Below are positions 17,444-38,232 of a stretch of DNA of 64,000 nucleotides, one piece after another (positions within the stretch are counted from its first letter, which is position 1; each line of letters opens with the position of its first letter). The notes under the pieces are model-generated. The model ran no database searches, was not told the DNA's origin, and was given only the letters and a program-made list of their open reading frames with translations. The DNA comes from an uncultured Gammaproteobacteria bacterium (GTDB lineage Bacteria > Pseudomonadota > Gammaproteobacteria > UBA6186 > Azoamicaceae): NCBI GenBank assembly GCA_963784575.1, contig CAWARU010000001.1, forward strand, positions 2,375,244 to 2,439,243. The letters run 5' to 3'. A program made the translations under genes and the position numbers.

Positions 17444-20290
17444 TTATCCGGGTCTTTGTCCTTGTCCGCGATCTCTCCGTGCACCCTCTTCTCCTTCTTG
17501 CTCCCTCTCTTCACCTACTACCGCACTTATCATCGGTCCTTCATTCGCAATTGCACGACCAAGTTCTCTTGCAAAACCCGGATCTGGTGGTGCTTGAGTA
17601 AATTTTGCTGCACCAGGCGTAAAGCGAACTGCATATTCAGTAGTCGGGACAAGATCTAATTGCTTTTCTAAATGACCCTGAGGAAATCCTTGATGTGCAA
17701 GCCGTACTTGTCGCATCGTTTCATCTTCTCTCATAATCAGTTCAGGAGCACTTTCTTTAAATGATGCTGCCTGTGCTGCAGTAAAATTATGCCAGGAACA
17801 ATTTCCAGATTGTTGTATTGGCATAATAGGAGATTGTGTTTGATCTGCTATTGGCGTAAGTCCTCTAGGGCGATACATAGCGTCCACAGCGAACATTTCA
17901 GGAGCCCTTTGAATTTCCAAAAGTTTACTTATGTATTCATTTAGAGCGGGTGATGTTATTGGGACAGGTTCAAATGAATAAGTATGCACAAAATCAGCAT
18001 TTGCTTCATATCTTGTATGATAAAAACTTGGATCGTACCCTCCGTTATAAATTCTTATGGTAATTTGGTCGTTGTGTCTTTCAAATCGATGAGCTGTTGC
18101 ATGGCCCGGTGCGCCCGACCAACCAGTGGAAAGAATTTGGCTGCCTCCATCTGAAAGTTTTCTTATTCGTTCAAGAAAATCACTTGTTAACTGTAAGACT
18201 GTACCAAACGGCGTGAATGTACGATCATCAAAAATTCTATGCTCTATGTTAAAATTGTTATAGTCTTCAACGATAGCATGTATTAAGGCATCATTTCTAA
18301 CTTCAGAGCTTTCACAAAGCGCTATACAGTGGGCATACATTTTGTGCCTTATGGCTTCACCAGGTGAAGCTCCTTGTAAGTTAGTGACAACGGCATGAGG
18401 AAGATCAACAGCCATACCTGCAACTTGGTCTTCTGGCACAACAATACGTCCTCCACCTATAAGAGCATCTGGTGAAGAATATTCAAATCCCAATTCTCCT
18501 CTAACATGTCCCAATTGCTTTGAGATTCTGTCAACAACTGCCAAAGGTGCATCAGGTTTGTCTCTTGAAATACTATATAAAGTTTCCTTTTCAACACCTC
18601 TGAGCAGTTCCTTAAGATGCGGTACGTTTATGTCTTGTCCTGATAGTTTTTTTGCTAAATTTTCAAGGCGATCATCGGTAAAAAATACATCTATATCTGC
18701 CCGAGAATTTGTTAATCTGGCCTCGTCTAATCTTTTAATTTCAGCCTCCAATACTCTTCGATTTTTGGCTTTACTACCTTGTTGCGACATTTTAGCTAGA
18801 AGCGCCTCTTTTTCTTGCTCTTTTCGCATTTCTTTGTGAGATTTTTCATCTCTATCAGTCTTTCTCTCTATTGATTCTCTCTCTTTGCTTGATTCATCTC
18901 TAATTTCTACCTCTTCCTCCCTTCTCTTATCATCATCAGAAATTTGATGCAATTTTGCATCTCTTTGTTTTTTTCGTTTCTCATCTATTTTTTCTGCACT
19001 TAATTTCTCTTTTTTTCTTTGATCAGGTTTTTGATTCATATTCTGTTTATATCTAACTGTGCTTTGCATTCCACCCATTATTGCACCCAAAGTTCCTGCC
19101 TGTGCTGCTGCGCCAGCGACACCGTCTGTCCATGATTTTTGCTGGCCAGTTGCTTTTTCAACAGCATTCGTTGCTAATTTTGTCGCAGCACCACTTGCTG
19201 CACCAATAAAGCCTCCGGCGATGGCACCATTGAGTGCTGCATTTCCTTCACTTGTCGCCAGCAAACTCACTATTTCAATTTGTTTAATTGCAACAGCAGA
19301 GGTTAAACTTGAAATATTACCTGCAACAGCGCCTGAGAGTGCGTTTCTTGCAAGTTCTTTAGGTCTCAAGTCTTGTTGCAAAGATTCAAAATTAAACCTG
19401 GGTAATTCACCCCTAATTATTGGCGTAACGATATGTTTATTAACAAGTGGCGTTAGGACACCCAAAGCAGCACTGGATGCTGTTCGTTGTGCAAATGTTG
19501 TTAAAGGATTCATCATAGAGCTTGCAGCACCCGCGGTTGATGCACTAGGTACTACTCCCATGACTGCTCCTACTGCGAAACTTGCTCCAGCTTGTTTCAA
19601 ACAATGATCGTAGTTGATCTCTGATTCCGGAGTTGAAAGGGAATATTGCATTGTGTTTAAGCCAGAACTCAGCAAGCCAGAAACAAGTGGTGTAGCAACT
19701 CCCGGGTATGCAACAGAAATTCCTGCACCTAATGCGACTTGACTTGCCCCAAAAGCAAAAGTATAAAACTTATGCTTAACACCTCCTTCAATACGAACAT
19801 GTACGTGGACATCGCCTGTTGAAACAGTTAAATAACAGCTTTCCGAGAGTGCATTTCTTAACCAGCTAATCATTTCTTCATTGGAACAATCGATTATCGA
19901 ATTCATTCCTTTTACAAAAAAAGCCTGTTGTGTAGACCCTTCATTATCTGTCATTGTTGCTCTAATGAAACCTGTATCATCAGCAAATATGGTAACCAGG
20001 TATTGGGTATTCACGGTTTTTTTACTTACAAGTATTGTTCTATTTTCTGATAATTCTACTGACACCGTTTTCAAAGCAATATGAGATTTCAACTTGTCAC
20101 CGTCTTTTAATCTAATTTTTTTAGGTCCATTTTTGAAGCTATATTGTTGAAAAAATAATCCCCCTTTATCTGATAATTCGGAAGGAATTTTTTCACTTCC
20201 GGCAGAAATATAAATCTTGGGTCCCGCAGTGCTTGTTAAGCTTGAATCCCTTAAAACATCTGCAGCATCAGTTCGTTGTCTTTTAGGCAT
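17444..20290 (-). CDS. Large (948-aa) multidomain membrane-associated protein, a putative secreted effector with a C-terminal His..Cys (LRAT/permuted NlpC-P60-like) domain
   Basis: Long uninterrupted ORF. Contains a Gly/Ala-rich hydrophobic block, a KE-rich coil, GAPGHATAHRF..ITIRIYNGG about 100 aa before QQSGNCSWHNF, and a Glu-rich tail EEREQEGEEG. Confidence 0.75.
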   Translation of the reverse strand: MPKRQRTDAADVLRDSSLTSTAGPKIYISAGSEKIPSELSDKGGLFFQQYSFKNGPKKIRLKDGDKLKSHIALKTVSVELSENRTILVSKKTVNTQYLVTIFADDTGFIRATMTDNEGSTQQAFFVKGMNSIIDCSNEEMISWLRNALSESCYLTVSTGDVHVHVRIEGGVKHKFYTFAFGASQVALGAGISVAYPGVATPLVSGLLSSGLNTMQYSLSTPESEINYDHCLKQAGASFAVGAVMGVVPSASTAGAASSMMNPLTTFAQRTASSAALGVLTPLVNKHIVTPIIRGELPRFNFESLQQDLRPKELARNALSGAVAGNISSLTSAVAIKQIEIVSLLATSEGNAALNGAIAGGFIGAASGAATKLATNAVEKATGQQKSWTDGVAGAAAQAGTLGAIMGGMQSTVRYKQNMNQKPDQRKKEKLSAEKIDEKRKKQRDAKLHQISDDDKRREEEVEIRDESSKERESIERKTDRDEKSHKEMRKEQEKEALLAKMSQQGSKAKNRRVLEAEIKRLDEARLTNSRADIDVFFTDDRLENLAKKLSGQDINVPHLKELLRGVEKETLYSISRDKPDAPLAVVDRISKQLGHVRGELGFEYSSPDALIGGGRIVVPEDQVAGMAVDLPHAVVTNLQGASPGEAIRHKMYAHCIALCESSEVRNDALIHAIVEDYNNFNIEHRIFDDRTFTPFGTVLQLTSDFLERIRKLSDGGSQILSTGWSGAPGHATAHRFERHNDQITIRIYNGGYDPSFYHTRYEANADFVHTYSFEPVPITSPALNEYISKLLEIQRAPEMFAVDAMYRPRGLTPIADQTQSPIMPIQQSGNCSWHNFTAAQAASFKESAPELIMREDETMRQVRLAHQGFPQGHLEKQLDLVPTTEYAVRFTPGAAKFTQAPPDPGFARELGRAIANEGPMISAVVGEEREQEGEEGARRDRGQGQRPG

Positions 20291-20467
20291 AAGTTTGACT
20301 CCTGAACTAAAGTTAATAGAAAAACCTAATTTGGTATAAGTAATTTACTAATTGTTACTTACATACAAAACTTAAAATGAGAATATCAAAAAAAACCTCA
20401 TTAATCAAAAAATGTTCTTGTAAAATCCTATCTTAGCGCCCAATATTATGATGTATTTGAAAAACTT

Positions 20468-20540
20468 GATTAGGTGATTAGGTGATTAGGTGATTAGGTG
20501 ATTAGGTGATTAGGTGATTAGGTGATTAGGTGATTAGGTG
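20468..20540. repeat. Octanucleotide tandem repeat (GATTAGGT) x9 plus 1 nt
   Basis: Nine perfect head-to-tail units were counted directly. They lie 178-250 bp upstream of the start of the 948-aa gene. Confidence 0.95.
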
Positions 20541-20892
20541 CCCATCATTGGATTTAGCAGATGAAGTGAAGCAGCTGCAACTTCCTTTTGAATGCGAATA
20601 CCTGCTATGGAAATTGGTTTCAATGGACAGAGCACTGTATCAACTGGAAATGTTCGGATATATGCTAAATGTTCAGAAATCTTCCATAACTAGAATTTAC
20701 ATAATCAGACATGAAGATTCTTCGGAAGGGTTTCTGTCAGGATCGCCACCAAGTGCTTCAATTTTCGACTTTAATGTTCTCTCTTTTTGGTTCCCATTGT
20801 TCACATTGACAGCATGACGCAATGGTGTATCCCCATCGCAATCTACTTGGTGGTATCCAAGAGGAGCCCGGTTTTTCGGAAGCGGGACTATG

Positions 20893-21747
20893 TTAATATT
20901 TATCAGCCATTGAGTTACCCATTGAGTCATTTGTTACTTTTTTCCAAACGATAATCATACCATCTGCAGAACCGCTTGCAAAATGTTGTTCATCAAGTGC
21001 GAGTAAGCAAATCACTTCTCGGCTATGGCCTTGAAGCGTTTGTATACAATTAGAACCTTGCCAAATTCGAATTGTTGTATCATAACTTGCACTGACCAAT
21101 TTCCCATCGGCTAATACAATCAGGGCTCTTACTGCACCGGTGTGGCCTGTTAATATTTGTGGAACACTTTTATTCCAAACTCGAATAGTCCGGTCATGTG
21201 AACCACTTATTAAGATTCCCTCGGGGCTTTCTGTTAAAGCATATATTGGTTCTGTATGCCCGTAAAGTGTAGCAACATTTCGATAACCATCCCATAATTT
21301 GATAGTGGCGTCTCTAGATGTGCTCGCTAATAATTTCCTAGATAAAAATATTAAGTTTTGTATGGGTGCGTCGTGGGCTTGCATGCTATGAATAAGACCA
21401 TTTTGATTCCAAAACTTAATTGTCCTATCGTGTGAGCCACTGATAATCAATCCATCGTTCACGGTTAATGCAGAAATATAATCAGAGTGACCAATTAAGG
21501 TTTTTTCACATTTGCCAGCAGCCCATATCTTGATTGTGTTGTCTTCAGAGCCGCTGACAATACAATTGCCAAGAGACTTCACTGAAAAAACACCTTTTTT
21601 GTGTCCCTTAAGTGTTAAAACACGATTTCCTTGATACCAAAATTTAATTGTTTTATCAGCCGAGCTGCTGATTAAATAATTAGAATTATAACATAAGCTA
21701 AAGACACCCATTAAGTGTCCTAAATATTTCTTGTATATTTCAAACAC
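20893..21747 (-). CDS. Seven-bladed WD40 repeat protein (stand-alone beta-propeller)
   Basis: Seven units of GH-x-V...D-x-TI(K/R)-x-W (DKTIKFW, DNTIKIW, DRTIKFW, DATIKLW, DRTIRVW, DTTIRIW, DGMIIVW). Confidence 0.85.
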   Translation of the reverse strand: MFEIYKKYLGHLMGVFSLCYNSNYLISSSADKTIKFWYQGNRVLTLKGHKKGVFSVKSLGNCIVSGSEDNTIKIWAAGKCEKTLIGHSDYISALTVNDGLIISGSHDRTIKFWNQNGLIHSMQAHDAPIQNLIFLSRKLLASTSRDATIKLWDGYRNVATLYGHTEPIYALTESPEGILISGSHDRTIRVWNKSVPQILTGHTGAVRALIVLADGKLVSASYDTTIRIWQGSNCIQTLQGHSREVICLLALDEQHFASGSADGMIIVWKKVTNDSMGNSMADKY

Positions 21748-21748
21748 T

Positions 21749-23134
21749 TTATTTAAACATTTCTTTTATATAACGAAATACTGCCCTTATTGCCATCGTC
21801 TGGCCTCCTTCTTCTCTACCAAGCGTGTTTTGAGTATTCCAGGCCATAAAATCAAAATGTACCCAAGGAATGTTTTCTAACACAAATTCATTCAGAAATA
21901 ATCCAGCCATAATTGCTCCAGCATAGGGAGAAGATCCTGTTGAATTTATCTCACAAATATTGTTCTCCAAATATTTCTTGTAGGGTTTATAGAGAGGGAG
22001 TTGCCATAGAGGATCATTTTCTTGTTTCCCGTATTCCATTAATGTTTGTGCAAGAGTTTCGTTATTTGACATGAAAGCAGAAATTTCAGTGCCGACAGCA
22101 GCCAATGCTGCACCAGTGAGAGTTGAAAAATCTATCAATAATTGGGGTTTTTCACTACAAGCTTCTGTTAATGCATCGGATAGAATTAATCTACCTTCTG
22201 CATCAGTACTGCCAACTTCGACTTTTATTCCCTTACGAGTTGTGATGATGTCACCTCTTTTATAAGCATTGCCTGAGATAACATTATCTACAGCTGGTAT
22301 TAATAAGCGCAATCGTATTGGAAGATTTGCAGCCATAATCAAATACCCTAGACCAAGCGCATGAGCTGCACCTGCCATGTCTTTTTTCATTAAATTCATA
22401 TCATCGGAACGTTTTAAGTCAAGTCCGCCAGAGTCAAAACAAACACCTTTACCGACTAAGGTGACTTTAGGATTTTCAGGGTCTCCCCAAGTAATATCGA
22501 TTAAACAGGGAGTTCGACTGCTGGAACGACCCACCATAAATATACTGGGATAATTTTCAAGCAGCAGTTCACGATCTTTAACTATTTTAATTTGAGCATC
22601 AAAACGTGATGTAATGTCCTTCGAGGTATGTGCAATCTCTTCAGGACCCATGTCTTCGCTCGGTGTATTGATAAGATCTTGTATCAGGTATACTGCCTTC
22701 ACCATGTTTTCTATAGAATTATAATCTAGATCGTTTGAAATAAAAATTTTAGGATATAATTGCGGAATATTTTTGTATTTTTCGAATCGATAAGCACCTA
22801 TACCCCAAAATGTGAGGGCTTTTCTCATAAAATCTCAATCAGCGCCTTGTCAATCGAGGATGTAATGACCTTCGCCAAGAACATTAGGCAATATAGAATA
22901 TGATGTCACATCATAAAGATGCTCTATTCCAAACAAAATCTTGTCGGGTTTGCCATGATCATCTGGAATTAAACAATAACTACCCGCTCTCCCATCATAG
23001 CGAGTTTTTTGAATCCATACTTTGGTGCTATAAGTTTGTTCGTTTAGCCATTCTTCAAATTCTTGTTTTGTCAAAGGGATAATTGGGATACTCTCTTCTA
23101 GTGTTTTTGTAAAGCAATTAAGTTCCTTTAACAT
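21749..23134 (-). pseudogene. M17 leucyl aminopeptidase family protein interrupted by two in-frame TGA codons
   Basis: ORFs 22850-23134 (N-terminal domain) and 21749-22828 (catalytic domain, GSTDAEGRL motif) are in the same frame. The junction reads ..HYILD*QGAD*DFMRKALTFWG.. Confidence 0.6.
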
Positions 23135-23290: not shown

Positions 23291-23319
23291 TTGATTTTCT
23301 AACTTTACTTAAATAATAT
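23291..23319 (+). promoter_or_regulatory. Sigma70-like promoter upstream of the precursor peptide gene
   Basis: TTGATT (23291-96), a 17-nt spacer, then TAATAT (23314-19), about 40 nt upstream of the ATG at 23359. Confidence 0.35.
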
Positions 23320-23358
23320 TAAATTGTCTAAATAAATGAGTAAACCCAGGGAGGAGAC

Positions 23359-23544
23359 ATGAACGATCGCGAAGTTGATATGAAAAATCTAACAGACTCA
23401 AGCACTTCTTCAGATAATAGCCTGACCTCAATAAGTTGTACCGAGGATCCAGGCGTTATAGTTTATGAAAAACCAAGTTTTGTTTTCTGTGATGAACATC
23501 CATCTGGAAAGCTTGGGGCAAATAATTGCTGCAGTAAATGTTAG
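23359..23544 (+). CDS. Putative RiPP precursor peptide (61 aa, Cys-rich C-terminal core)
   Basis: A strong SD GGGAGGAG lies 3 nt upstream of the ATG. The leader is Ser/Thr/Asp-rich. Cys residues sit at positions 27, 44, 57, 58 and 61 (..NNCCSKC*). The gene lies directly upstream of two RRE-fused radical-SAM genes. Confidence 0.6.
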   Translation: MNDREVDMKNLTDSSTSSDNSLTSISCTEDPGVIVYEKPSFVFCDEHPSGKLGANNCCSKC

Positions 23545-23559
23545 AATGAGTTCTATAAA

Positions 23560-23592
23560 CTGGGGAATATCAATACCCTTGATATTCCCCAG
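23560..23592 (+). terminator. Perfect 14-bp stem hairpin just after the precursor gene (attenuator/partial terminator candidate)
   Basis: ctggggaatatcaa (23560-73), loop taccc, ttgatattccccag (23579-92). It begins 16 nt after the stop codon. The trailing sequence is only moderately T-rich. Confidence 0.45.
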
Positions 23593-23615
23593 TTCATCAT
23601 TTAACTTGGCAAACA

Positions 23616-23790
23616 TAACTGTTCAGGCACAGGAGATTCGCTTTGGAAAAACGTCCAGATTTGAGGCAAGGTTGCTTTAAAAATTCAACAAAACAGCGGA
23701 GTTTACACATAGTAAATGAGCAATTTTTGTTGAATTTTTAATGCGAGATTGCCCAAAGATGGGCGTTCCAGGGCAGTGCGGGAACGATTG
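23616..23790. repeat. About 175-bp palindromic (MITE/REP-like) element, full-length copy
   Basis: The imperfect outer arms 23616-23676 and 23745-23790 are reverse-complementary. A perfect 17-bp inner stem pairs 23677-93 with 23725-41. Arm sequences recur at 54562-54607, 44001-44012 and 57924-57937. Confidence 0.6.
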
Positions 23791-23815
23791 CAGGAAATCT
23801 ACTGAAGGACGCTTT

Positions 23816-25195
23816 ATGTCAGAAACTACTATCAGCTTTAATCACAAGGAAGTTGCCTTTAGGAACCTTTACAACACTGGTATGTTGATGTATAAGGGTG
23901 ATTTATATGAAGTTGAAAAGCTGGGTTTAGATCTTATATCTAAAATAAAAAATAAAAATACGACTATTGCCGAACTCGGACATTATATAAGTCAAAAATA
24001 CAATATTAGCATTGAAAACTCGATAGAAGATGTATCCGTTTTCATAAATGCGCTTTTTGAGACCGGTCTCATATTAATCGATGGTAAAAAAGTAATTATA
24101 AAATCGAACGGTCAGATCACAGATGAAAAAAATAGAATGAAAAGAAACGATGAGTTTGGATACTCAAAGTGTTGGGCGCTTGCGAAAAGAAATCAGGTAC
24201 CACTTAAATGTAAATTTAATACCACTTATCGTTGTAATATTGCTTGCAAATATTGCTATAACGGAGAAAGACCTGGTATTCCAGGCGGCGATAATTATGC
24301 TAAAAAAACAGAATTATCATTAACAGAAATAGATAATCTGTTCCAAGAAATGTATGGTTTAGGGACATTTTTCTTTGATTTTGCGGGAGGCGAGCCTTTT
24401 GCAAGACAGGATTTTGATGAAATTTTATCTTTGACAGATAAGTATGAATTTGCGGTTGAAATTTCAACCAATGGCACTTATGTGAAAGAGGATGTTGCTA
24501 AAAGGTTATCAGAACACCGAATTCAACTCGTTGTTGTATCTATGTTTAGCCCAAATTCTAGCATTCACGACGCTTTTACTCAAGTAGATGGTACATTCAA
24601 ACGTGCCTGTAATGGAATAGAGTTATTGCTAAAACATGGAATTGAAGTGGGCGTTAGATGTTCCATAAATAAATCAAATTTCGCACAATGGAAAGAGTTA
24701 AGAAATTTAGTATTGGGCTGGGGGGCCAGGTATTTTCCACATACTCAGGTACATTTATCAAGTGATCGCAAAGTAGATACGCGTCATTTACGCTTAGACA
24801 ACGATCAACTCAAAGAAATCTTTGATGAAGGAATAACATTAAATGAGAATCAAAGATGTGAAGTCGGTTTTGCGCGGGTTGATATTATGCCAAACGGTGA
24901 TGTTGCTCTCTGCTCGTTACTTACCCATCCCCTAGGAAATATTCGAGAACAATCGTTTGAAACAATATGGAAAGAATCTAAAAATTTAAATACTGTCAGA
25001 ACACTCTTAGGAGGAGAAGTAAATAGTTGTTCTGGTTGTAAGTCTTTCGGTGAAGATGTCTACAGGTGTACCGCTGATGCGTTGTTTGATGATGGTGCAT
25101 TTAACGTTCCTTCTTCAGAAGCCATTCGAGTAATTCGAGCATATGAAAACACAGCAAAACAGTCCTCTCATGGAGAACTTAGCAAACAAGCTTGA
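23816..25195 (+). CDS. Radical SAM peptide maturase with N-terminal PqqD-like RRE and C-terminal SPASM/twitch-type Cys motifs
   Basis: ATG at 23816 (MSETTISF). About 90-aa PqqD-like domain, CX3CX2C (CNIACKYC), GGEP, CX12GX4C (CEVGFARVDIMPNGDVALC) and CSGC-x9-C. Confidence 0.85.
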   Translation: MSETTISFNHKEVAFRNLYNTGMLMYKGDLYEVEKLGLDLISKIKNKNTTIAELGHYISQKYNISIENSIEDVSVFINALFETGLILIDGKKVIIKSNGQITDEKNRMKRNDEFGYSKCWALAKRNQVPLKCKFNTTYRCNIACKYCYNGERPGIPGGDNYAKKTELSLTEIDNLFQEMYGLGTFFFDFAGGEPFARQDFDEILSLTDKYEFAVEISTNGTYVKEDVAKRLSEHRIQLVVVSMFSPNSSIHDAFTQVDGTFKRACNGIELLLKHGIEVGVRCSINKSNFAQWKELRNLVLGWGARYFPHTQVHLSSDRKVDTRHLRLDNDQLKEIFDEGITLNENQRCEVGFARVDIMPNGDVALCSLLTHPLGNIREQSFETIWKESKNLNTVRTLLGGEVNSCSGCKSFGEDVYRCTADALFDDGAFNVPSSEAIRVIRAYENTAKQSSHGELSKQA

Positions 25196-26321
25196 GGACT
25201 CCTGGTTTTTTGAGGAAGTAAGATTGTATCAAAAATCCGATGATGATAGGCTAACAGAATTGTATATAAAGTGTGGAATGTTAGCAGAGGATGGCAAAGA
25301 CGCTCCTATATTTCTAAGAAGCCATCATTTGGCTGATCTTGTCTTGGTAGTAGATAGAGGGTTTGGTGCTGAGGCAGTTATTTGTTTTATAAAGAGATCT
25401 TCCTCCGTCCTCTGGGCATACAATCTGGTTTATGATAAAGCCATTAAAAAACAAAGCAAAACAACAAATCTTTGGAAAACTGCCTTTAGGATTGCTAAAG
25501 AACAAAAGGTAGATTGGCTGACTGCTCAGCCTATGGCAAGGAAATCTGAAGCCCTTCAAAGATATTTTCATTATTATGGTTGGTTTTCATATGCAGACGA
25601 TGAAATAATAAATCCTTTGCCATTATGCTATAAGATTTGGCAAAAATTTGACCTTAACCCAATGCTTCCGAACCGAATGTCCTTTACTAAGGAAAGTTTT
25701 ATCATAGAAAATGTAAATTCAAGAATTATTATTAATAAAAAAGACAATAATTTATCAAGTTTTTTAGGGAAACAGGAAATTATATATAACGAAAATGTTG
25801 CAGATATTAATGTGTTATTTTCTAATGTCGATGCACAACCCCAACACCTACAAAATTTGCGATTTTTTCAATCCAATGGCGCCATTTCTCTTTTAAAATC
25901 TGGTTTTAGTTTGTTACAACCTTGGTGGACTTCTATCAGTACCGAAGAATTAGTACTTCCAGCAAGAGATTTTTGGCCTTGGGATGAAATTTTGAATCAG
26001 AATCATCAAATAGAATTTATCCAACATGATGGTGAATTAAAAAATAGACTTAACATTTTACAACTGAGTAAAATAGAATTTCAATTTCAATTCAGAGGAA
26101 ATCCGTCCTCTTCATATACCAGATTGTTGTTTGAGAGTTATAATAAGCCGATCGTAAGAGAAGGCGAAATCGAGATAGGGGACAGCATCCTAAATTTTGG
26201 TGAATTAGCATATAATGTCATCTATTTGAAATGTAATAGTGTTTGGCGGACATTTGTCTTTGTTTGTAAAGGTACTTTTAATCTTGATGTAAGTGTAAGG
26301 AAACAGTATGAGCTGCATTAA
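25170..26321 (+). CDS. Hypothetical protein, possible N-terminal GNAT-like fold, unknown C-terminal domain
   Basis: Overlaps the upstream stop (25195) and the downstream start (26308), so it is translationally coupled within the operon. Similarity to GNAT (..ALQRYFHYYGWF) is weak. Confidence 0.55.
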   Translation: MENLANKLEDSWFFEEVRLYQKSDDDRLTELYIKCGMLAEDGKDAPIFLRSHHLADLVLVVDRGFGAEAVICFIKRSSSVLWAYNLVYDKAIKKQSKTTNLWKTAFRIAKEQKVDWLTAQPMARKSEALQRYFHYYGWFSYADDEIINPLPLCYKIWQKFDLNPMLPNRMSFTKESFIIENVNSRIIINKKDNNLSSFLGKQEIIYNENVADINVLFSNVDAQPQHLQNLRFFQSNGAISLLKSGFSLLQPWWTSISTEELVLPARDFWPWDEILNQNHQIEFIQHDGELKNRLNILQLSKIEFQFQFRGNPSSSYTRLLFESYNKPIVREGEIEIGDSILNFGELAYNVIYLKCNSVWRTFVFVCKGTFNLDVSVRKQYELH

Positions 26322-27621
26322 TAATCATGTTCTTGCAATGCAAAAGCTTGGAGAGGTCTGGTTTGTAAAGCATATTCCAAGTAGAAGATTTTTTGAATTT
26401 TCGAATACTTTAGGGATACTTTGGGAGTGCTTACTGTCAACGCAAAGTATCAATGACGCCAAAGAAAAATTTGAAAGAAAATTTCCTTCTGTAAAAGAAG
26501 TTGGGGATGATTTTGTTGATGCGATAAAGCAACTAGAAAAATACGGGTTACTTAACAATAATAATTTACGTGACAATAAAATAGTTGGTTCAAACTCGGC
26601 TTCACACACTTTGAATGATATAGGAAGCATACAAAAGAAAATGGCTTCTATAAGTAGAAAAACCAACAGACCACTTTTGGCAGAGTATGAAATGACTTAT
26701 CGATGTAATTTACGCTGCGTCTATTGCTATCAACCCAATTATTTAAAACATGCGAAAATAAATGAGTTAACAAAAGAAGAAATTACTGTAATGTTGCAAG
26801 ATTTTTCAAAGTCTGGTTTATTTTTCTTTAATGTCACTGGAGGTGAATGTACGTTAATGCCGAATTTTCCTCATGTTATTGAAGAAGCCAGAAAACTCCA
26901 TTTGGATTTAACAGTACTTACTAATGCAACAGCCATAAAACCTCATATATTAGATTTATTTAGCGAATATGAAATTTCAGAGATCAAAGTAAGCATCTAT
27001 GGTTCCTCAGCAGAGACTTATAAAAAGTTTACTGGGTTTGAATCTGGTTTTAACAAAGTAGTAAATAATCTAAAAAAAATGAAGGAAGCAAATTTAAATG
27101 TGACAGGCAAAATCATTGTAACTTCTTACCAGGAAAAAGAGTATAAAGAGACTGTACGATTGCTGCAGGATCTTGATATAAACATTGAAGTTAATAGTCA
27201 TATAATGCCAGCTATGGATGGTGATTTATATCCTCTGGAGTTTCGTCCGCAATCTTCTACGCTCAAAGAACTTATGGAAACAGGATATATTGACATTGAG
27301 GGGGGCTGTAGGGCTTGCACAGCGGGCACTCTAAAATTTCGTATAACGCCTGATGGTTCTGTCAATGCATGTGAATTAACACGTGAAACGCTTGGCAATA
27401 TTCGCCAAGGCAATATTTTGGATATTTTAAATTCTTCTAAGTCCAAATCAGTCAAAAATGAGGTTTGGCAAGCGATCAAAAGTCAGGATAAAGAAAAAGT
27501 CTGGGCATTGCCTTGTCCTGCTATTGGAAAGATGGAGGAAGGAAGTTGGGTCGAGCCCTCTAAAGAGGCCATGAGATGGACTAATATTGCGATTGAACTT
27601 AAGGAACATGGTATTGCTTAA
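26308..27621 (+). CDS. Second radical SAM peptide maturase with N-terminal PqqD-like RRE and a twitch-like auxiliary-cluster motif
   Basis: CX3CX2C (CNLRCVYC), GGEC, CX12GX4C (CTAGTLKFRITPDGSVNAC). The N-terminal ~100 aa resemble PqqD (..DDFVDAIKQLEKYGLL). Confidence 0.85.
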   Translation: MSCINNHVLAMQKLGEVWFVKHIPSRRFFEFSNTLGILWECLLSTQSINDAKEKFERKFPSVKEVGDDFVDAIKQLEKYGLLNNNNLRDNKIVGSNSASHTLNDIGSIQKKMASISRKTNRPLLAEYEMTYRCNLRCVYCYQPNYLKHAKINELTKEEITVMLQDFSKSGLFFFNVTGGECTLMPNFPHVIEEARKLHLDLTVLTNATAIKPHILDLFSEYEISEIKVSIYGSSAETYKKFTGFESGFNKVVNNLKKMKEANLNVTGKIIVTSYQEKEYKETVRLLQDLDINIEVNSHIMPAMDGDLYPLEFRPQSSTLKELMETGYIDIEGGCRACTAGTLKFRITPDGSVNACELTRETLGNIRQGNILDILNSSKSKSVKNEVWQAIKSQDKEKVWALPCPAIGKMEEGSWVEPSKEAMRWTNIAIELKEHGIA

Positions 27622-27636
27622 TATAACAAAAAAAAT

Positions 27637-28818
27637 ATGCCGTTAAAAAACTTGGAATTATTAGTCTTCAAGCTAATTGCTCTGATAGATTCTTTAAGTT
27701 TTGCAATCATTCTTCCATGCCTACCTTATTTTGCGATGAAATTTGGTGCGACTCCCTTAGAAATCACTGGTTTGACAGCCATTTATTACCTGGGTTTTTT
27801 CATATCTGTTCCTATTATTGGCTATTTGATAGATAAACAATTTATCGAAAAAAAATTATTACTTTTTACAATAAATGGCATCATATTTTCTTACGTAGTC
27901 CTACTTGTATCCAAAAATGTATTCTTAATATATGTTGCGCGATTTATTATGGGTTTAATGTCAGGAAATTTATGTATTTTGCAAGTTGCTATTACCAATT
28001 TATCGAAAAAAGAAGAGCTGACTGAAAATTTTGCTGCCCTTTCTGTATTTGGAAATATAGGTGATATTTTAGGAATGGGAATGTGTATCAGTCTGCCATT
28101 TATTTTTCAAGAGGATTTGGTTTATCAAAATATTTTTCTTTTTTCTATAATAATTAACTTCCTGATTTCTTTCGCACTTATTAAGTGCGTTCGTAGATCA
28201 ATACCAAAAAAAAACCAGGTCCAAAAGGTGCAGGATTTTTCATGGAAGAATATTAATTTAAATATATTATCTTATTTATTTTTTAACTTTTCATTAATGA
28301 GTATTTCTTCCGTACTTCCACTATTAGTTTATGAAAAATTTGGCTTTACCACCCAAGCCCTTGCGGCATTATTTTTATTGTATATAATGGTTGGTACTCT
28401 GGCTCAAAAGCTGGTGCTTAGAGGATCTATTGAAAATAATAAGTTGGCTATAGTTTTATCCTGCTATTCATTATGTTTTATCTCTTGCATGCTCTTTGAA
28501 AAGGCAAATAGTCCTATTGTATTCATAATACTCTGTATTATCTTTTCTGTAGGCGTATATTTACTTTCGCCATTAATTCTTTTCAATATAGCAAGTTCAT
28601 CACTTAACTCTGGTAGAACGGGTGTAATAATGGGAATTTCGGACTGCACAAAAGCTTTGGCAACAATTGTCGCATCTATTTCTTCTGGGTTTTTGTACCA
28701 AAATTATTCTGAAAACATAGTTTTTTATACCAGCGGTGCCTTATTGCTTCTCAGTTTTTTCTTCTACATAAGTTATTCGAAACCCTATTTTTTGTTCAGG
28801 AAAATATATGACAAATGA
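27637..28818 (+). CDS. MFS transporter (probable exporter)
   Basis: 393 aa, about 12 hydrophobic helices, in the same operon. Confidence 0.8.
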   Translation: MPLKNLELLVFKLIALIDSLSFAIILPCLPYFAMKFGATPLEITGLTAIYYLGFFISVPIIGYLIDKQFIEKKLLLFTINGIIFSYVVLLVSKNVFLIYVARFIMGLMSGNLCILQVAITNLSKKEELTENFAALSVFGNIGDILGMGMCISLPFIFQEDLVYQNIFLFSIIINFLISFALIKCVRRSIPKKNQVQKVQDFSWKNINLNILSYLFFNFSLMSISSVLPLLVYEKFGFTTQALAALFLLYIMVGTLAQKLVLRGSIENNKLAIVLSCYSLCFISCMLFEKANSPIVFIILCIIFSVGVYLLSPLILFNIASSSLNSGRTGVIMGISDCTKALATIVASISSGFLYQNYSENIVFYTSGALLLLSFFFYISYSKPYFLFRKIYDK

Positions 28819-30022
28819 AGAGAATAAAATAATTAGAATTTTATTATTATTTACTTGGTTTACAGTTATAATTCTCGCATTAAAATTTGTTCAAAGAAAG
28901 CTTGCCAGAGCTGCCAGCAAGTTCATTTTACCAGCGCAATCAAGAGATTTTACCTATCTAAAGGTTGGTCTAGACAATAATCGTGTTTTGGCATCAGAGT
29001 ACATGGCTATTTGGAAAGCAAATATTGTGGAGAATAATATGCGATTTTATGTGCATAAATTGCCTCTCCAGAGATTGAATGTTTTTGAAATAGAGGTTTC
29101 AGCGGAAGCTCAAGATATCATAGTTTTCAACACAAATGATTCGTGTTATGAAGAGAATCTCGAATATCTTTTTTTAATGGCTCAAGGTACAAAATGCAAT
29201 ATTTTTGCTTTTAATTATAGGACTGTTAATTCTAATAGAAGAGAGGGAATTATTAAACAAGAATTAATCGATGATGGAAAGGAAGTCTATCGTTTTGTTA
29301 AAACTAGAAGAGGTAGATCAAATGGAATAATTTTGTATGGTCATTCCTTAGGTGCAATGATTGCCATATTTGTTGCCATTGATTGTTTTAAAAATAACCA
29401 GTCCGTTAAAATATTCAGTGATCGTGCTCCCGCAAGCTTATCTGAAGCTGTTTGCGGTTTGGCACGAACAATCTTTGAAAATCCAGATAAAATAGGATTA
29501 AACTGTTCTCCAAGACCAATGATTGGTAGGATTCTGTCTATGATTATTTGGCCAATCGTTAAAATTGGTTTAATATTGCTCGGATGGGAAATGAATGTAG
29601 CGACTGCATTCAGAGAAATTCCAGATGATGTTAAAGAATATACGGTGATTCGATCAAAAAAAGAGGATCGAAGTTATGATCGCTTAAGTGCCAGGCATGT
29701 TGATGATCTCATTATTTATTTTCGCAGTAGTTTATATGCTGCCTTAAGTCGAGAAACAAAAGCACAGAAAAACAGTCTTAAGTCCACAATTCAAGAAATG
29801 CAGCTTGAACAGCAATTTGGAAAAACTATTGATGAGGAGCGTCTTAAGCAAGTACAACAGCGTCTCGCTCTTTTAAAGGCTAGGAAGTTTAATGGATCAA
29901 CAAAAGATAGTCATGGTGTACCATTGATGTTTTTGAAGAGTCGTAATGATGATAGAACGGGGCTAAAGTTACTCGCAGAATTTTGCCATAGAAACCAGGA
30001 TATACAAATTCCTAAATTTTAG
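28808..30022 (+). CDS. Membrane-anchored alpha/beta-hydrolase (GxSxG serine hydrolase)
   Basis: Start overlaps the MFS stop. Has an N-terminal TM helix and the nucleophile elbow GHSLGA within ..GIILYGHSLGAMIAIF.. Confidence 0.65.
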   Translation: MTNEENKIIRILLLFTWFTVIILALKFVQRKLARAASKFILPAQSRDFTYLKVGLDNNRVLASEYMAIWKANIVENNMRFYVHKLPLQRLNVFEIEVSAEAQDIIVFNTNDSCYEENLEYLFLMAQGTKCNIFAFNYRTVNSNRREGIIKQELIDDGKEVYRFVKTRRGRSNGIILYGHSLGAMIAIFVAIDCFKNNQSVKIFSDRAPASLSEAVCGLARTIFENPDKIGLNCSPRPMIGRILSMIIWPIVKIGLILLGWEMNVATAFREIPDDVKEYTVIRSKKEDRSYDRLSARHVDDLIIYFRSSLYAALSRETKAQKNSLKSTIQEMQLEQQFGKTIDEERLKQVQQRLALLKARKFNGSTKDSHGVPLMFLKSRNDDRTGLKLLAEFCHRNQDIQIPKF

Positions 30023-30054
30023 ATGGTAACCGGCCATTGGCATGGCAAATTTGT

Positions 30055-31269
30055 TTAATCGACCAGTCCTGATAGATTTTCTATTATTTTCTTTATGTGC
30101 TGCAAGAATTTGGAGGCTTCAATACCATTAATGATACGATGGTCAATTGTCAGTGAGAGATGAAGGTAGTTTAATTCTGGAGGGTAGGGGGAGCCTAAAA
30201 ACAACAGTGCTATTGCGGGATCAACTAAAAGAGGCGACCCCCAGACTACCCCACAATCTCCCATATAACTTAAAATGATATTGGGCCGTAATTTGATTTG
30301 ATCTTCCCCATCTAATGCTCGTTCAACGCGGGTTTGCAAAGCATCTATGAAGCTATCAAAATTTAAGGTGTCTGCTGCAGGGATCACAGCTGTTACTAAA
30401 TCATCTTGGTGAGTTTGAACAGCAATCCCTAAATTAACATGAGAAAATTCGCGTTTAATAGATTTACCGATGAGCATGGTTCGAAATAAAGGATATTTTA
30501 TACAAGCTTGTGCTACACAATAAGCAAATGCTTGGAAGACAGAAATTGCTTTTTGATTATCCAAATCAGCACCCTGTTCCCTAAAGAATTGCGCAACTTT
30601 TTCTAATTTAATCAATTCAATAGTTGCGACCAAGGTTGCAGGAATAATATTCTGCTGGCTGGCTTTAAATCGCGCATTTAACATTTGTTGTTGTTCTGGG
30701 ATGTAAATGTCCTGATATATTCGTATATCTTCTTCCGCAGTTCTGGATACATTTTGCAGTTTATTTTTTTGTTCAAGATAATTGTCTACATCTGTTGATA
30801 ACAAAACAGAACCATCCTGCGGTATTGCCAGCATTTCCGCTAAAGATATCCCCGCCTCTTTACAATAGAGTCGAGTCCTGGGGGGAATTTTTCTGAATAT
30901 TTTTTTTTCGTCTTCACTCAACAAAAGTTGTTTGTCATTTTGTGATGGAAAATTTGACATACTTTCTTTTTCAGGCTCGCAAACAACTTTGGAGTGTGTA
31001 TCTATGGTTTCAATTGTACCAATTCTAGCACCTACGGCTACGATATCTCCTTCATTTACTTCCCAACTCAGCAAATGACCGCCAACCAGAGCTTCAATTT
31101 CGAAAGTAGATTTATCTGTTTCCATTATATATAAAACCTGATCTTTTTCTATTTTTTCACCAAGATTTTTTAAAAAACGAATAATAGTTACCTCTCTCAA
31201 TCCTTCCCCCATTTGAGGAACAATAATTTCAGAAATAACAGGGCTAATTGTTGCAGTTTGTTTAGACAT
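30055..31269 (-). CDS. 2-oxoacid dehydrogenase E2 (dihydrolipoamide acyltransferase)
   Basis: Lipoyl-lysine motif METDKSTFEIEA and catalytic DHRIINGIEASKFL. Confidence 0.85.
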   Translation of the reverse strand: MSKQTATISPVISEIIVPQMGEGLREVTIIRFLKNLGEKIEKDQVLYIMETDKSTFEIEALVGGHLLSWEVNEGDIVAVGARIGTIETIDTHSKVVCEPEKESMSNFPSQNDKQLLLSEDEKKIFRKIPPRTRLYCKEAGISLAEMLAIPQDGSVLLSTDVDNYLEQKNKLQNVSRTAEEDIRIYQDIYIPEQQQMLNARFKASQQNIIPATLVATIELIKLEKVAQFFREQGADLDNQKAISVFQAFAYCVAQACIKYPLFRTMLIGKSIKREFSHVNLGIAVQTHQDDLVTAVIPAADTLNFDSFIDALQTRVERALDGEDQIKLRPNIILSYMGDCGVVWGSPLLVDPAIALLFLGSPYPPELNYLHLSLTIDHRIINGIEASKFLQHIKKIIENLSGLVD

Positions 31270-31277
31270 ATATTTCT

Positions 31278-33356
31278 CTAGAGAATTGTTAAGGTGTTTT
31301 TAATTGCCGCAATGACATCTTCTACGGATGGCAAGACAGCATATTCTAGACTTGGATGATAAGGAATATGGATATCATCGCGCGCTACTAATTGGGGAGG
31401 AGCATATAAAAAAGAAAACCATTCCGTATTGGAAACAATATTGGATATGATGGTAGACCCAAAACTACTGGTTTTGTTATCTTCTTGCACGACTACCAAA
31501 CGACCCGTTTTTTCCAAGGATTTTGCTATCGTTTTCATATCGCAAGGTACAAGGCTTCGCAAATCAATTATTTCTAAGGAAATTCCAATTTCACTATAAT
31601 AAGCATCGACTTTTTCCATAAGTTCTAATATGTTTCCCCAACATACTACAGTGACATCTGTGCCCTCTTTTACAATCGAGGCAATACCGAAAGATATGGC
31701 CTTGAATTTCGTGACAGATTTCTTTATTCTCGTAATATGCTTTGGTATCAAAATGAGAGAAGGATCAAGATCTTGCATTGCGGCAGCAAATAAGCCAAAG
31801 GCATCTTCTGGTGTACTTGGTACGGCTACTCTAAGGCCAGGGATGTGCGTCCACCACCCTTCATTGCTTTGACTATGCCAAAGTCCTCCTGCTGGTAAGT
31901 ACGCACCGTATGGCGCATATAGAACCATAGGGCAAGACCATTGACTACAACTACGCCATCTCAAGCTCGCAACTTGAGAAACCAACTGATCAAACCCAGG
32001 CGTAATAAAATCAATAAATTGTATTTCAAATACGGGTCTATATCCATGAACAGCTAAGCCTACTGCTGCTCCAATAATTGTAGCTTCTGCAATGGGCGCA
32101 TTGGTTACACGATTGGGATAAAGAGTGCTAAGCCCCTTAGTAAAACCAAAAACACCGCCCTTTGGATCTTCGATATCTTGACCAAAAAGTAACATATTAC
32201 TATTTTCTTGAAGTCCTAAGTTAAGTGCCAGATTTATTGTATCCACCATTGTCAGCGGAGTCTGCAAAGTCTGCGGAGGTTGCAAAGTCTGCGAAGACTG
32301 CGAAATTTGCTGAGACAGAGGGAATTCCGTGAATAGTTCGCGATGGGTAACGGCCGCACCATACAAATGTTCTTTTATATTTAGATCGGGTTCCTCTTTT
32401 TGATTTTCTAAAACTTCATCAAAAGTAGCAAAGACATCATTTTGCAGAGATAGTTCTATTTTTGTTAATTCTTCTTCTGTTAAGTGGCCCTGTTTTATAA
32501 GATGAGCGGCATAAACCTGGATCGGATCACACAAAGCCGCCAATTCATCAGGCGTTCTATAAAGTCTGTGATCTTCTCCCACGGTATGTGAATCAAGCCT
32601 ATCTACAGAACACCATAAAATACTTGGGCCTAGACCTTGCCTCACTTTTTCAATTGCTCGGGCTGCACAATCAAGAACTTGCAATACATCCCGGCCATCT
32701 ATCTGAGTCAGCAATTCTTGATTAAATATGCCCATCTGAAAAGGTAAGAATTTTGCAGTAGGAGTGCTAATTGCATATTGATTATCTTCTACTAAAAAAA
32801 TAATGGGTAATTGCTCTTGGACGGCATGGCAAACTGCCTCATAAAATTCTCCCTCACGGGTTGCTCCATCTCCAATGCTACAAACGGTGAGATGATTCAA
32901 TTTGTCCATTTTTTGGGCCCAGGCTGAACCAACGGCAGGCAAACATTGTGATGCAGTCGGGGCAGCACTCGGAAAGACTTTATAAGTGAATGAACCACAA
33001 TGAGCAACCATACTTCTACCCCCAGAAGTCGAAGATGGCTTTGCTAAGAAATCCTGGACTAATTCTTTGATGGTTATCCCTTTCCCAAGCATTAAATGAC
33101 TTCCCCTATAGTAGGGAAAAAGATAATCTTCTTTATTCAATAAAAAAGGAATAGCCATCAAACCTTCATGTCCACTACTTGAGACATGAACATGAGCCCT
33201 ACCTTGTCTTACCAGCATAGCGCTTTTTTTATCAAATGAGCGCACTTGAAGCATCAAGCGAAGTAAATTTAAGTGCGTACTTCTCTTCACTCTCTTCATG
33301 AGAATGTCTTCCGGCGAATGCTGATGTTGCTCCTGCAAAACTATTTCATTAAACAT
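31278..33356 (-). CDS. Fused E1 alpha-beta subunit of a (branched-chain) 2-oxoacid dehydrogenase, TPP-dependent
   Basis: 692 aa. TPP motif GDGATREGEFYEA in the N-half and a transketolase-like beta half. The halves are joined by a short QTLQ-repeat linker. Confidence 0.85.
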   Translation of the reverse strand: MFNEIVLQEQHQHSPEDILMKRVKRSTHLNLLRLMLQVRSFDKKSAMLVRQGRAHVHVSSSGHEGLMAIPFLLNKEDYLFPYYRGSHLMLGKGITIKELVQDFLAKPSSTSGGRSMVAHCGSFTYKVFPSAAPTASQCLPAVGSAWAQKMDKLNHLTVCSIGDGATREGEFYEAVCHAVQEQLPIIFLVEDNQYAISTPTAKFLPFQMGIFNQELLTQIDGRDVLQVLDCAARAIEKVRQGLGPSILWCSVDRLDSHTVGEDHRLYRTPDELAALCDPIQVYAAHLIKQGHLTEEELTKIELSLQNDVFATFDEVLENQKEEPDLNIKEHLYGAAVTHRELFTEFPLSQQISQSSQTLQPPQTLQTPLTMVDTINLALNLGLQENSNMLLFGQDIEDPKGGVFGFTKGLSTLYPNRVTNAPIAEATIIGAAVGLAVHGYRPVFEIQFIDFITPGFDQLVSQVASLRWRSCSQWSCPMVLYAPYGAYLPAGGLWHSQSNEGWWTHIPGLRVAVPSTPEDAFGLFAAAMQDLDPSLILIPKHITRIKKSVTKFKAISFGIASIVKEGTDVTVVCWGNILELMEKVDAYYSEIGISLEIIDLRSLVPCDMKTIAKSLEKTGRLVVVQEDNKTSSFGSTIISNIVSNTEWFSFLYAPPQLVARDDIHIPYHPSLEYAVLPSVEDVIAAIKNTLTIL

Positions 33357-34462: not shown

Positions 34463-34485
34463 GCCAAGCTCTCTAAACTACAACC

Positions 34486-36491: not shown

Positions 36492-36545
36492 ATCTACTCC
36501 CCCATCTCACCTTCAGGTTCTGGTTCTAATATATGTAGGATTTTC

Positions 36546-37629: not shown

Positions 37630-38232
37630 TTGAATAAGGCGGATCAGACAATGGATTTGAGCAGAATTGAACTCTTATTGAGTAAACATGAAAAAGTAGA
37701 GCAAGCAAGGGCTCTATTAAAAGAAAATGACCTGGAGAACAATATTGAGGTTTATATAAAATTGCATGAAGGATTGGATTTGGATTATGACAAGGATAAG
37801 GATAAAGTTATCCAAGAAATGAAAAAATACATGGCCCTTAACTTGCCTTATTCATTAATGCCTTCTCATATTGAAATAATGACTGCATGTTTATCTGATT
37901 CACTTGAAAACGACGGCAAAGATGAACCGATAGCAAAGCGAGCTTCAGAAGCTTCAAATGATGAAAATAAAACAGAAAACGGAGAATACAACAATCTTAG
38001 GGTAGAATCGGTTCTTCTGGATGTATGGCGCAGTGTTTTGGGAAATAAAGGAATACAGGTTGATGACAATTTCATGGACTTGGGTGGAGATTCCCTCAAA
38101 GCTACTGCCATCATTTCTCAGATTAAAAAGATACTGCAAGTTAATATATCCTTTAGAGAATTTTTTTCTTTTCCCAAAATATGTTTGCTCTGTAAACTAA
38201 TTGATGAAAAGAACTCAGTAAAAACACAGTAA
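37630..38232 (+). CDS. NRPS fragment: adenylation C-terminal subdomain (A8-A10) fused to a peptidyl carrier protein
   Basis: Begins within an A8-like RIELLL.., then LPYSLMP (A9-like) and NDGK (A10 Lys), followed by the PCP motif LGGDSLKA. There is no A-core upstream. The track uses a TTG start. Confidence 0.7.
   Translation: MNKADQTMDLSRIELLLSKHEKVEQARALLKENDLENNIEVYIKLHEGLDLDYDKDKDKVIQEMKKYMALNLPYSLMPSHIEIMTACLSDSLENDGKDEPIAKRASEASNDENKTENGEYNNLRVESVLLDVWRSVLGNKGIQVDDNFMDLGGDSLKATAIISQIKKILQVNISFREFFSFPKICLLCKLIDEKNSVKTQ

Follow-up and report, generated by a model that had tools for sequence, protein, structure and literature searches.

Does the gene group at positions 23359-30022 (+) of a 64,000-nucleotide (nt) stretch of DNA from an uncultured gammaproteobacterium (contig CAWARU010000001.1; this whole stretch is referred to here as the window) make a peptide that is synthesized on the ribosome and modified after translation (a RiPP), and what kind of peptide would it be? 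The group is tightly packed and consists of an open reading frame (ORF) of 61 amino acids (aa), a gene for a radical S-adenosylmethionine (SAM) enzyme with a RiPP recognition element (RRE), called rSAM1, an orphan gene of 383 or 392 aa, a second RRE-radical SAM gene (rSAM2), and genes for a major facilitator superfamily (MFS) pump and an alpha/beta hydrolase. An earlier note on this DNA proposed that it holds the operon of a RiPP not yet described, with a precursor rich in Cys and two radical SAM maturases that are fused to RREs, and this central claim is supported by the conservation of the ORF and by the affinity of both enzymes to RiPP maturases. The best explanation, to which we assign a probability of about 0.72, is that the locus carries a four-gene cassette (precursor, rSAM1, a protein with a GNAT fold and a beta-sandwich, and rSAM2) of an unnamed and very rare RiPP family, extended here by the MFS pump and the hydrolase. 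Judged from sequence comparison, the conserved core is these four genes, which span 4.3 kb, and the product is probably thioether-crosslinked and possibly acylated.

The precursor peptide and its conservation

The cassette was compared with seven other loci (L002, L003, L004, L005/L006, L007/L008 and L009) and with a divergent eighth, L171; the census of related cassettes rests on short metagenomic contigs, and small ORFs left out by gene callers were recovered through translation of the locus DNA. In all seven other loci (GC content 36-63%), and in L171, the gene immediately preceding the rSAM1 homologue is a small ORF, so that the loss of this ORF beside the homologues, which the earlier note had named as evidence that would tell against it, was not what we found. 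The order small ORF, rSAM1, unknown protein of 340-390 aa, rSAM2 holds in all fetched cassettes. Given that the related loci span 36-63% GC, the cassette appears to be a mobile and coherent unit.

In the window, the precursor gene occupies 23359-23544 (+) and is preceded by the Shine-Dalgarno-like sequence GGGAGGAG (23349-23356, +), read 4 nt before the ATG, where a very strong one had been noted. The N-terminal halves of the precursors are unrelated between loci, and the C-terminal 26 residues are conserved. The C-terminal part of the window peptide runs from Y36-E-K-P-S-F, a YxxPx[L/I/F] motif, to DEHPSGKLGANNCCSKC-stop, and the consensus across the peptides is Y-[ST]-x-P-x-L-[RK]-x-G-S-E-N-P-S-G-K-L-G-G-N-A-C-C-[SG]-x-C-stop. 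The Y, P and L positions, C58 and C61 are invariant in nine of nine precursors, and there is not one insertion or deletion between the invariant Tyr and the C-terminal Cys across the aligned precursors. A precursor hidden Markov model (HMM) run against about 170 fetched loci of more distant radical SAM relatives matched the cassette loci only (E 1e-14 to 1e-30), and an HMM of the middle protein behaved in the same way. The window precursor has no Pfam match, none of the nine family members has an NCBIfam match, and the peptide motif was not found in the literature searched. As far as sequence conservation can tell, the 61-aa peptide is a real conserved gene rather than a chance ORF.

The divergent locus L171 (GCA_020718555.1, 23% GC, 1470-5685) encodes two tandem 30-aa peptides, MKKKYVLPKIVICVGHKSNQLGSANCCKKC, that are almost leaderless; one runs from MKKKYVLPKIV to a CCKKC tail, and the other has the tail YCKVC. 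They retain the Y, P, L and C-x-x-C positions at the spacing of the other precursors, and the persistence of this spacing in nearly leaderless peptides suggests that the functional information sits in the last 26 residues. At this locus rSAM1 is in two parts, a PqqD portion of 115 aa and another of 279 aa, and an rSAM2-like gene is also present.

The YxxPxL sequence is a known RRE-binding leader motif in lasso peptides (PMC10368454), and the choice between YxxP and WxxP decides RRE specificity (PMC13381572). Like lasso leaders, the cassette precursors carry an invariant Y-x-x-P-x-(L/I/F) at a fixed distance from the residues proposed to be modified (PMC10368454, PMC13381572); unlike lasso clusters, the cassette has neither a lasso cyclase nor a B2 protease, and its RREs are fused to radical SAM enzymes.

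A perfect 16-bp stem-loop stands at 23558-23594 (+), 14 nt 3' of the precursor stop, with an RNA folding energy of -28.2 kcal/mol (z = -5.4 against shuffled sequences). It is a candidate attenuator or mRNA stabiliser that could set the ratio of precursor to enzymes. A comparable hairpin is present in L171 and L009; the hairpin is not conserved across all related loci and is thus no feature of the family.

The two radical SAM enzymes

rSAM1 (459 aa, 23816-25195, +) matches Pfam Radical_SAM (9e-21) and SPASM (7e-10), and rSAM2 (26308-27621, +) matches the same models at 3e-23 and 2e-6. The ATG at 23816 is most likely the start of rSAM1: it has GAAGGA 6 nt upstream and agrees with the N-termini of the homologues, the alternatives being 23741, which gives the longest ORF, and 23759. 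The radical SAM cluster signature CX3CX2C was found where it had been reported, as CNIACKYC in rSAM1 and CNLRCVYC in rSAM2, and so was the auxiliary-cluster motif CX12GX4C (C348-C366 and C337-C355, respectively). Beyond the SAM cluster, rSAM1 has eight to nine conserved Cys in a SPASM-like arrangement (C119, C132, C265, C282, C348, C366, C405, C408 and C418), and rSAM2 has four in a twitch-like half-SPASM (C337, C355, C403, and C181 within GGEC).

The PqqD-like N-terminal domain that had been ascribed to both enzymes stands at the level of the family. PF05402 (PqqD) is matched by 9 of 12 rSAM1 homologues (best 1e-11) and by three of seven rSAM2 homologues (best 5.5e-10), and in the AlphaFold2 (AF2) model of rSAM1 (predicted local distance difference test, pLDDT, 80.5; predicted template modelling score, pTM, 0.83) residues 1-88 form strands followed by three helices with pLDDT above 90. 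The claim is weak for the profile matches of the window copies themselves, of which rSAM1 reaches E = 0.002, under the Pfam cut-off, and rSAM2 has no PqqD/RRE match.

To which enzymes are the two related? A profile search of the PDB placed the sactipeptide maturase SkfB at the top for both (2.7e-25 for rSAM1 and 9.2e-23 for rSAM2), followed by PqqE, SuiB, CteB and anSME, and the best NCBIfam match of rSAM2 is likewise SkfB. The best full-length Foldseek matches of the rSAM1 model are SkfB, SuiB, CteB and TigE, aligned over 415-510 columns, with 415-496 for SkfB, SuiB and CteB; the RRE-less enzymes anSME, MoaA and viperin align over about 300-385. Every NCBIfam equivalog, RiPP or non-RiPP, scores far under its cut-off for both enzymes: SkfB TIGR04403 78.6 (rSAM2) and 51.2 (rSAM1) against 300, AlbA NF012164 78.5 and 57.8 against 850, StsB NF045574 67.8 and 61.6 against 625, PapB NF047865 60 against 340 (with no match to a SCIFF-type precursor), MftC TIGR03962 94.4 against 265, PqqE TIGR02109 74 against 381, and the anaerobic sulfatase maturase TIGR03942 54.2 against 349. 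There is no sulfatase gene among the annotated neighbouring genes. The earlier note had allowed that the enzymes might cluster with sulfatase maturases or cofactor enzymes; the nearest relatives are SkfB, SuiB and CteB instead, and both enzymes group with RiPP maturases.

It could still be argued that the two proteins are not peptide maturases but a sulfatase maturase or cofactor enzymes of the haem or molybdopterin type, with a small ORF present by chance, and AhbD/NirJ and MoaA do appear among the weak NCBIfam matches. These scores are far under the cut-offs, however, the small ORF is kept in sequence and position at every locus, and the full-length structural neighbours are RRE-bearing RiPP maturases. 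We regard this explanation as highly improbable and in effect already refuted.

The family is very rare. A search of 5.8 billion protein clusters with rSAM1 returned only about 11 close relatives (42-52% identity), followed by a sharp fall to 31% or less. A scan of 185,579 species-representative genomes (GTDB) with the rSAM1 profile gave no close relative, the best match having 30% identity and the source genome itself likewise not being returned, and a metagenome scan yielded only the L006 contig, already in the set. Loci L010-L169 were dropped as family members, having neither the precursor nor the middle protein. L170 (P0013, 31% identity) was also set aside as a different system with three radical SAM genes: its span 91-5954 contains three RRE-rSAM-SPASM genes in tandem, together with genes for a 42-aa peptide (…VINVCDSGCA) and for an MFS transporter, whereas a gene for a GNAT-fold protein is absent.

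Among characterized systems, SkfB of the sporulation killing factor and AlbA of subtilosin resemble the cassette in having an RRE, a radical SAM core and a C-terminal twitch or SPASM domain, and a Cys-containing substrate peptide encoded just upstream. They differ in that identity is only about 20%, the precursor is unrelated, and the cassette combines two maturases with a GNAT-fold protein; moreover, SkfB and AlbA are Bacillus enzymes, whereas the cassette is found in a low-GC genome of Gram-negative type and in metagenomic contigs of 36-63% GC. The ranthipeptide or SCIFF enzymes (CteB, PapB) and QhpD, which forms Cys-to-Asp/Glu thioethers, are also RRE-rSAM-SPASM enzymes acting on peptides with a Cys-rich C-terminus, and the conserved Glu, Asn and Asp upstream of the Cys in the cassette peptides could be acceptors; unlike in ranthipeptides, however, the Cys pattern of the cassette is CCxxC at the extreme C-terminus. 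In thuricin CD, two different radical SAM maturases of one cluster (TrnC/TrnD) act together, as may be the case here, but clusters of that type have two precursors (PMC12093266), whereas the cassette has a single conserved core, which is short, and both of its enzymes bear an RRE. From the presence of two different maturases we infer that two distinct modification chemistries may operate on one peptide.

Mycofactocin (MftA/B/C) and PQQ (PqqA/D/E) share with the cassette a short peptide, a strongly conserved C-terminal core and an RRE-dependent rSAM-SPASM enzyme. It is conceivable, if quite improbable in our judgement, that the product is a cofactor, metallophore or signal which derives from the peptide and serves the host itself, with a metal- or redox-active CCxxC tail, rather than a secreted antimicrobial. 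Hosts that differ widely have kept the modified region to an unusual degree, which resembles PqqA and MftA and not the diversifying bacteriocins; protease, immunity gene and exporter are none of them conserved across the family; and PqqE and MftC are among the detectable relatives of the two enzymes. Nevertheless, the PqqE and MftC scores given above lie far under their cut-offs, equivalents of MftD/E/F and PqqB/C are not present in the window or the related loci, where two radical SAM enzymes and a GNAT-fold protein are found instead, and the neighbourhood shows no conserved dependent dehydrogenase or further gene of a cofactor pathway. The extremely patchy distribution also fits a cofactor poorly, and the MFS gene in the window and CPBP genes in L002 and L171 suggest export or immunity.

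The middle protein and the question of acylation

The gene between the two maturase genes (25170-26321, +) encodes 383 aa, or 392 aa from the ATG at 25143. The earlier description of its product as an unknown protein is borne out in that the window copy has no Pfam or NCBIfam match, and structure prediction now goes beyond it. An AF2 model built with 12 family members (pLDDT 81.8, pTM 0.82) divides the protein into an N-terminal domain of about 150 aa with the GNAT order beta1-alpha1-alpha2-beta2-4-alpha3-beta5-alpha4-beta6 and a C-terminal, all-beta sandwich of about 210 aa. With Foldseek, the N-terminal domain matched dozens of GNAT acetyltransferases, including Ard1, YhbS and RimI, at template modelling scores of 0.6-0.75 (target-normalised), and the C-terminal domain matched generic beta-sandwich domains. 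As a prediction from the model, the GNAT fold of the N-terminal domain is solid. In profile searches, 2 of 12 family members, both divergent, matched Pfam GNAT models (Acetyltransf_1/7/10; best 3e-5), and a check of the family against profiles gave one marginal RimI match. Only 14 members of the family came out of an exhaustive HMMER search through 1.84 billion representatives. The 175-aa protein of L171 has no profile similarity to the middle protein, and its GNAT match is non-significant.

GNAT enzymes are known to acylate or acetylate RiPPs at Lys or Orn side chains or at N-termini, as in selidamides, lipolanthines, albusnodin, goadsporin and microviridins (PMC8842026). In selidamides and lipolanthines (goadvionin, microvionin), the GNAT of the cluster joins an acyl group derived from an acyl carrier protein (ACP), or from a polyketide or fatty acid synthase, to Lys, Orn or the N-terminus (PMC8842026), and in relatives of the cassette the GNAT-fold protein likewise co-occurs with an ACP, a ketosynthase (KS) or an adenylating enzyme. 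Four of seven related loci have an ACP: in L005/L006 rSAM2 carries it as a fused C-terminal domain, a separate ACP of 87-92 aa with an LDSLD motif follows rSAM2 directly in L004 and L007/L008, and in L009 an ACP, a FabF-like KS and a P450 are immediately adjacent. In L003 there are instead genes for a methyltransferase and a Rieske oxygenase, along with one for an adenylating enzyme that resembles F390 synthetase, so that a KS or adenylating enzyme occurs in two related loci. The cassette differs from selidamides and lipolanthines, whose core chemistry is not radical SAM; its GNAT domain is fused to a beta-sandwich, lacks the coenzyme A (CoA) loop and belongs to a family of about 14 proteins, and lanthionine and avionin machinery is absent from the cluster. 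The fusion of an ACP to a radical SAM enzyme in the relatives sets them apart from GNAT-lipidated RiPPs, and no precedent for such a fusion was found in the literature searched.

Is the middle protein then an acyltransferase? It might instead be a self-resistance enzyme or a non-catalytic scaffold, with the nearby ACPs being unrelated or specific to rSAM2. In the alignments, the CoA pyrophosphate loop Q/RxxGxG/A between beta4 and alpha3 is not conserved in cassette members, and a GNAT domain without this loop may use another donor or be non-catalytic; the invariant residues R85, S86, W91, P273, D276 and R327 fall outside the classical GNAT motifs; and the ACP is fused to rSAM2 and not to the GNAT-fold protein, with none in the window cluster or in three of the seven relatives. 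On the other hand, the gene is flanked by the two maturase genes in every cassette, where the stops and starts of neighbouring genes often overlap, GNAT enzymes have a precedent in RiPP lipidation (PMC8842026), and divergent members keep a QGKGA-type loop and match Pfam GNAT models, although a QGKGAS-like loop itself was seen only in the divergent P0133. We consider such a role without acyl transfer unlikely.

A bolder form of the acylation idea can be drawn from the same data. Because the ACP is fused to rSAM2 in L005/L006, rSAM2 may work on or together with the carrier protein. The product would then belong to a new class of hybrids in which a very short Cys peptide, perhaps no more than the last 7-16 residues, is crosslinked by the two radical SAM enzymes and then joined to an ACP-borne acyl chain by the GNAT/beta-sandwich enzyme. 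It would be a radical SAM lipopeptide RiPP, made by a new pairing of enzymes coupled to an ACP and distributed sporadically over genomes of 23-63% GC, the Legionella-like genome of the window among them. We regard this as a rather unlikely outcome.

A distant homologue of the middle protein, P0135, was seen in another cluster rich in radical SAM genes (L174, 3227-12441, and L175), which has two B12-binding radical SAM enzymes, a ferredoxin-like protein, an ABC exporter and a 437-aa radical SAM enzyme beside a 31-aa peptide ending in Cys, MNHYSLSCNDGCSSSETEAAVVVAADEVVAC. The orphan GNAT/beta-sandwich family may be a general RiPP tailoring enzyme.

Downstream genes, proposed route and surroundings

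The start/stop overlaps on which the earlier note had based a single transcription unit were all read in the sequence: rSAM1 ends at 25195, beyond the middle-gene ATG (25143 or 25170); the middle gene ends at 26321, beyond the rSAM2 ATG at 26308; and the MFS gene ends at 28818, beyond the hydrolase ATG at 28808, an overlap of 11 nt. Between rSAM2 and the MFS gene there are 15 nt, within which a consensus scan predicted no terminator. The only terminator-like site 3' of the operon genes in that scan is a hairpin at 30033-30046 (+), after the hydrolase stop and before the convergent gene at 30055-31269 (-), and it is likely the end of the transcription unit. The close packing of the genes is upheld, but the inclusion of the last two genes in the conserved system is not, as they are absent from the related loci.

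The MFS transporter (393 aa, 27637-28818, +; Pfam MFS_1 9e-31) is weakly Tet-like by NCBIfam and is a candidate exporter or self-resistance pump, its role in export being plausible from the gene packing. The hydrolase (404 aa, 28808-30022, +) has the GxSxG motif and membrane anchor that had been proposed, in the form of GHSLG at residues 178-182 and a hydrophobic N-terminal segment at residues 6-30. Its profile score (28.7 bits against a cut-off of 20) makes it a DUF818 member, with a distant likeness to CPn0927/0928 of Chlamydia and to the Dot/Icm effector hydrolases SdbB/C of Legionella; it does not reach the equivalog cut-offs of the latter (NF045526, 33.8 against 400) or the former (35.2 against 200), and it has no match in the plasmid collection.

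That the two genes form an independent downstream module, for example with a membrane or effector-type hydrolase of an intracellular bacterium, is a real possibility, which we place somewhat short of even odds. Neither gene has a counterpart in any of the seven related cassettes, both being unique to the window locus, and the kinship of the hydrolase to the Chlamydia and Legionella proteins agrees with such a module. A sigma-70-like match within rSAM2 (27179-27206) would also fit, with the reservation that such matches were no commoner than chance in the scan. Yet both genes are on the same strand as the cassette, the 15-nt gap and the 11-nt overlap leave no terminator before 30033, and an exporter is expected as an accessory of a RiPP cluster.

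The accessory genes of the relatives vary. CPBP/Rce1-like membrane protease genes occur in L002 and L171, and the CPBP family is typical of bacteriocin immunity; together with the MFS gene of the window, these genes suggest that the product is bioactive and exported. The same Rce1-like genes raised the idea that the C-terminal C-x-x-C might be CaaX-like, which is speculation. A conserved helical protein of 208-218 aa is encoded just upstream of the precursor in L003 (4992-5624), L004 (3163-3789), L005 (723-1373) and L007 (1647-2303); it has no Pfam or NCBIfam match and no counterpart in the window, L002 or L009. In L005 an M1 aminopeptidase gene directly follows the rSAM2-ACP fusion, and in the window an M17 leucyl aminopeptidase gene (21749-23134, -) is divergent from the precursor. 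The M17 gene is split by two in-frame TGA codons within eight codons (22829-22852) into a 94-aa N-terminal and a 359-aa catalytic piece; decay to a pseudogene, recoding or a problem of sequencing could each account for this. These aminopeptidases might trim the leader.

Taking the four-gene cassette as the biosynthetic core, the following route can be proposed. Since YxxPxL is documented as RRE-binding in lasso leaders, the N-terminal RREs of both radical SAM enzymes would bind the YxxPx(L/I) motif as lasso-peptide RREs do, and the fixed 20-residue spacing from this motif would deliver the C-terminal tail (...GKLGGNACCxxC) into both active sites. Each enzyme would use a 5'-deoxyadenosyl radical and its auxiliary Fe-S cluster or clusters to abstract hydrogen and crosslink the tail. 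The likeliest product would carry at least one Cys-S-to-carbon thioether, as made by SkfB, AlbA and CteB, with the two invariant Cys as donors. The GNAT-fold protein would add an acyl or other group to an amine, either the conserved Lys or the new N-terminus after leader removal. The recurrent ACP in the relatives suggests an acyl-ACP donor, which would probably be carried there on the ACP fused or adjacent to rSAM2; in the window the donor would be a housekeeping acyl-ACP or acyl-CoA. The MFS pump would export the product, and the hydrolase might act in leader or ester processing or be an unrelated neighbour.

Several observations weigh against parts of this route, in addition to the degenerate CoA loop, the patchy ACP and the restriction of the MFS and hydrolase genes to this locus described above. 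The thioether chemistry is argued from the nearest solved homologue, at about 20% identity, and SPASM and twitch enzymes also form C-C or C-O links or epimerise their substrates. The conserved Lys, a proposed acylation site, is replaced by Gln in the divergent L171 peptides. Finally, no protease or exporter is conserved across the family for leader removal or secretion.

The window contains further gene groups around the cassette. A small-molecule cluster at 228-9832 (+) encodes a NodU-like carbamoyltransferase, an unknown gene, a 215-aa SbnA-like protein, SbnB (2,3-diaminopropionate synthesis), CarA and a CarB-like protein that lacks the MGS allosteric domain and has no relative above 67% identity, its named matches being gamma- and betaproteobacterial at 63-64%. 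At 37630-44003 there are a PP-binding carrier protein (37630-38232; 1e-12), a stand-alone nonribosomal peptide synthetase (NRPS) condensation domain (38282-39814), a MATE exporter (39879-41789, -), a FemAB-like GNAT (41920-42948) and a methyltransferase (42939-44003). These genes make up the third group of natural-product type within the 64 kb, and the carrier protein is part of this separate NRPS-like group, not of the cassette. Between the cassette and this group, a convergent operon at 30055-37322 (-) encodes a 2-oxoacid dehydrogenase E2, a fused E1 alpha/beta, an amino-acid dehydrogenase of the Glu/Leu type, an NAD epimerase, a family 4 glycosyltransferase (GT4) and a PIG-L deacetylase.

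Upstream of the aminopeptidase gene, at 17444-21747 (-), a eukaryote-like WD40 repeat protein (284 aa, WD40 2e-58) is encoded beside a 948-aa Lys/Glu-rich orphan without Pfam, NCBIfam or PDB match; the two large orphan proteins of the window both lack a PDB match. The WD40 protein and the 948-aa orphan fit the 'effector' repertoire of an intracellular bacterium. The Legionellales-like host presumed in the earlier note is a guess drawn from the low GC content, this WD40 gene and the DUF818/SdbB-like hydrolase. Two insertion sequence (IS) transposase genes lie at 45394-46215 (-) and 49730-51094 (-), of which one has an rve/IS3-like core and the other is IS481-like; the second has about 55% protein identity to plasmid copies in Burkholderia, Pandoraea and Cupriavidus, and a search of the plasmid collection gave no nucleotide match to the IS region. 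Rfam gave no match in the window.

In summary, RRE-dependent radical SAM RiPPs are a known kind, of which the cassette represents a new family, set apart by the orphan tailoring enzyme and by the fusion of a radical SAM enzyme with an ACP in relatives; our searches of the literature on Legionella radical SAM RiPPs and on RiPPs combining radical SAM, GNAT and ACP found nothing specific. Radical SAM RiPPs are among the main sources of narrow-spectrum antibiotics and of new chemistry for crosslinking peptides. With a clear substrate, two non-identical maturases and an orphan GNAT-fold enzyme, the cassette is a compact and testable system that may hold a new crosslink and a new route of RiPP lipidation, and the constant spacing between the YxxPx(L/I) motif and the Cys tail makes it a clean case for one leader serving two RRE-bearing enzymes. 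If the host is an intracellular bacterium of the Legionella type, a secreted modified peptide would be of ecological interest.

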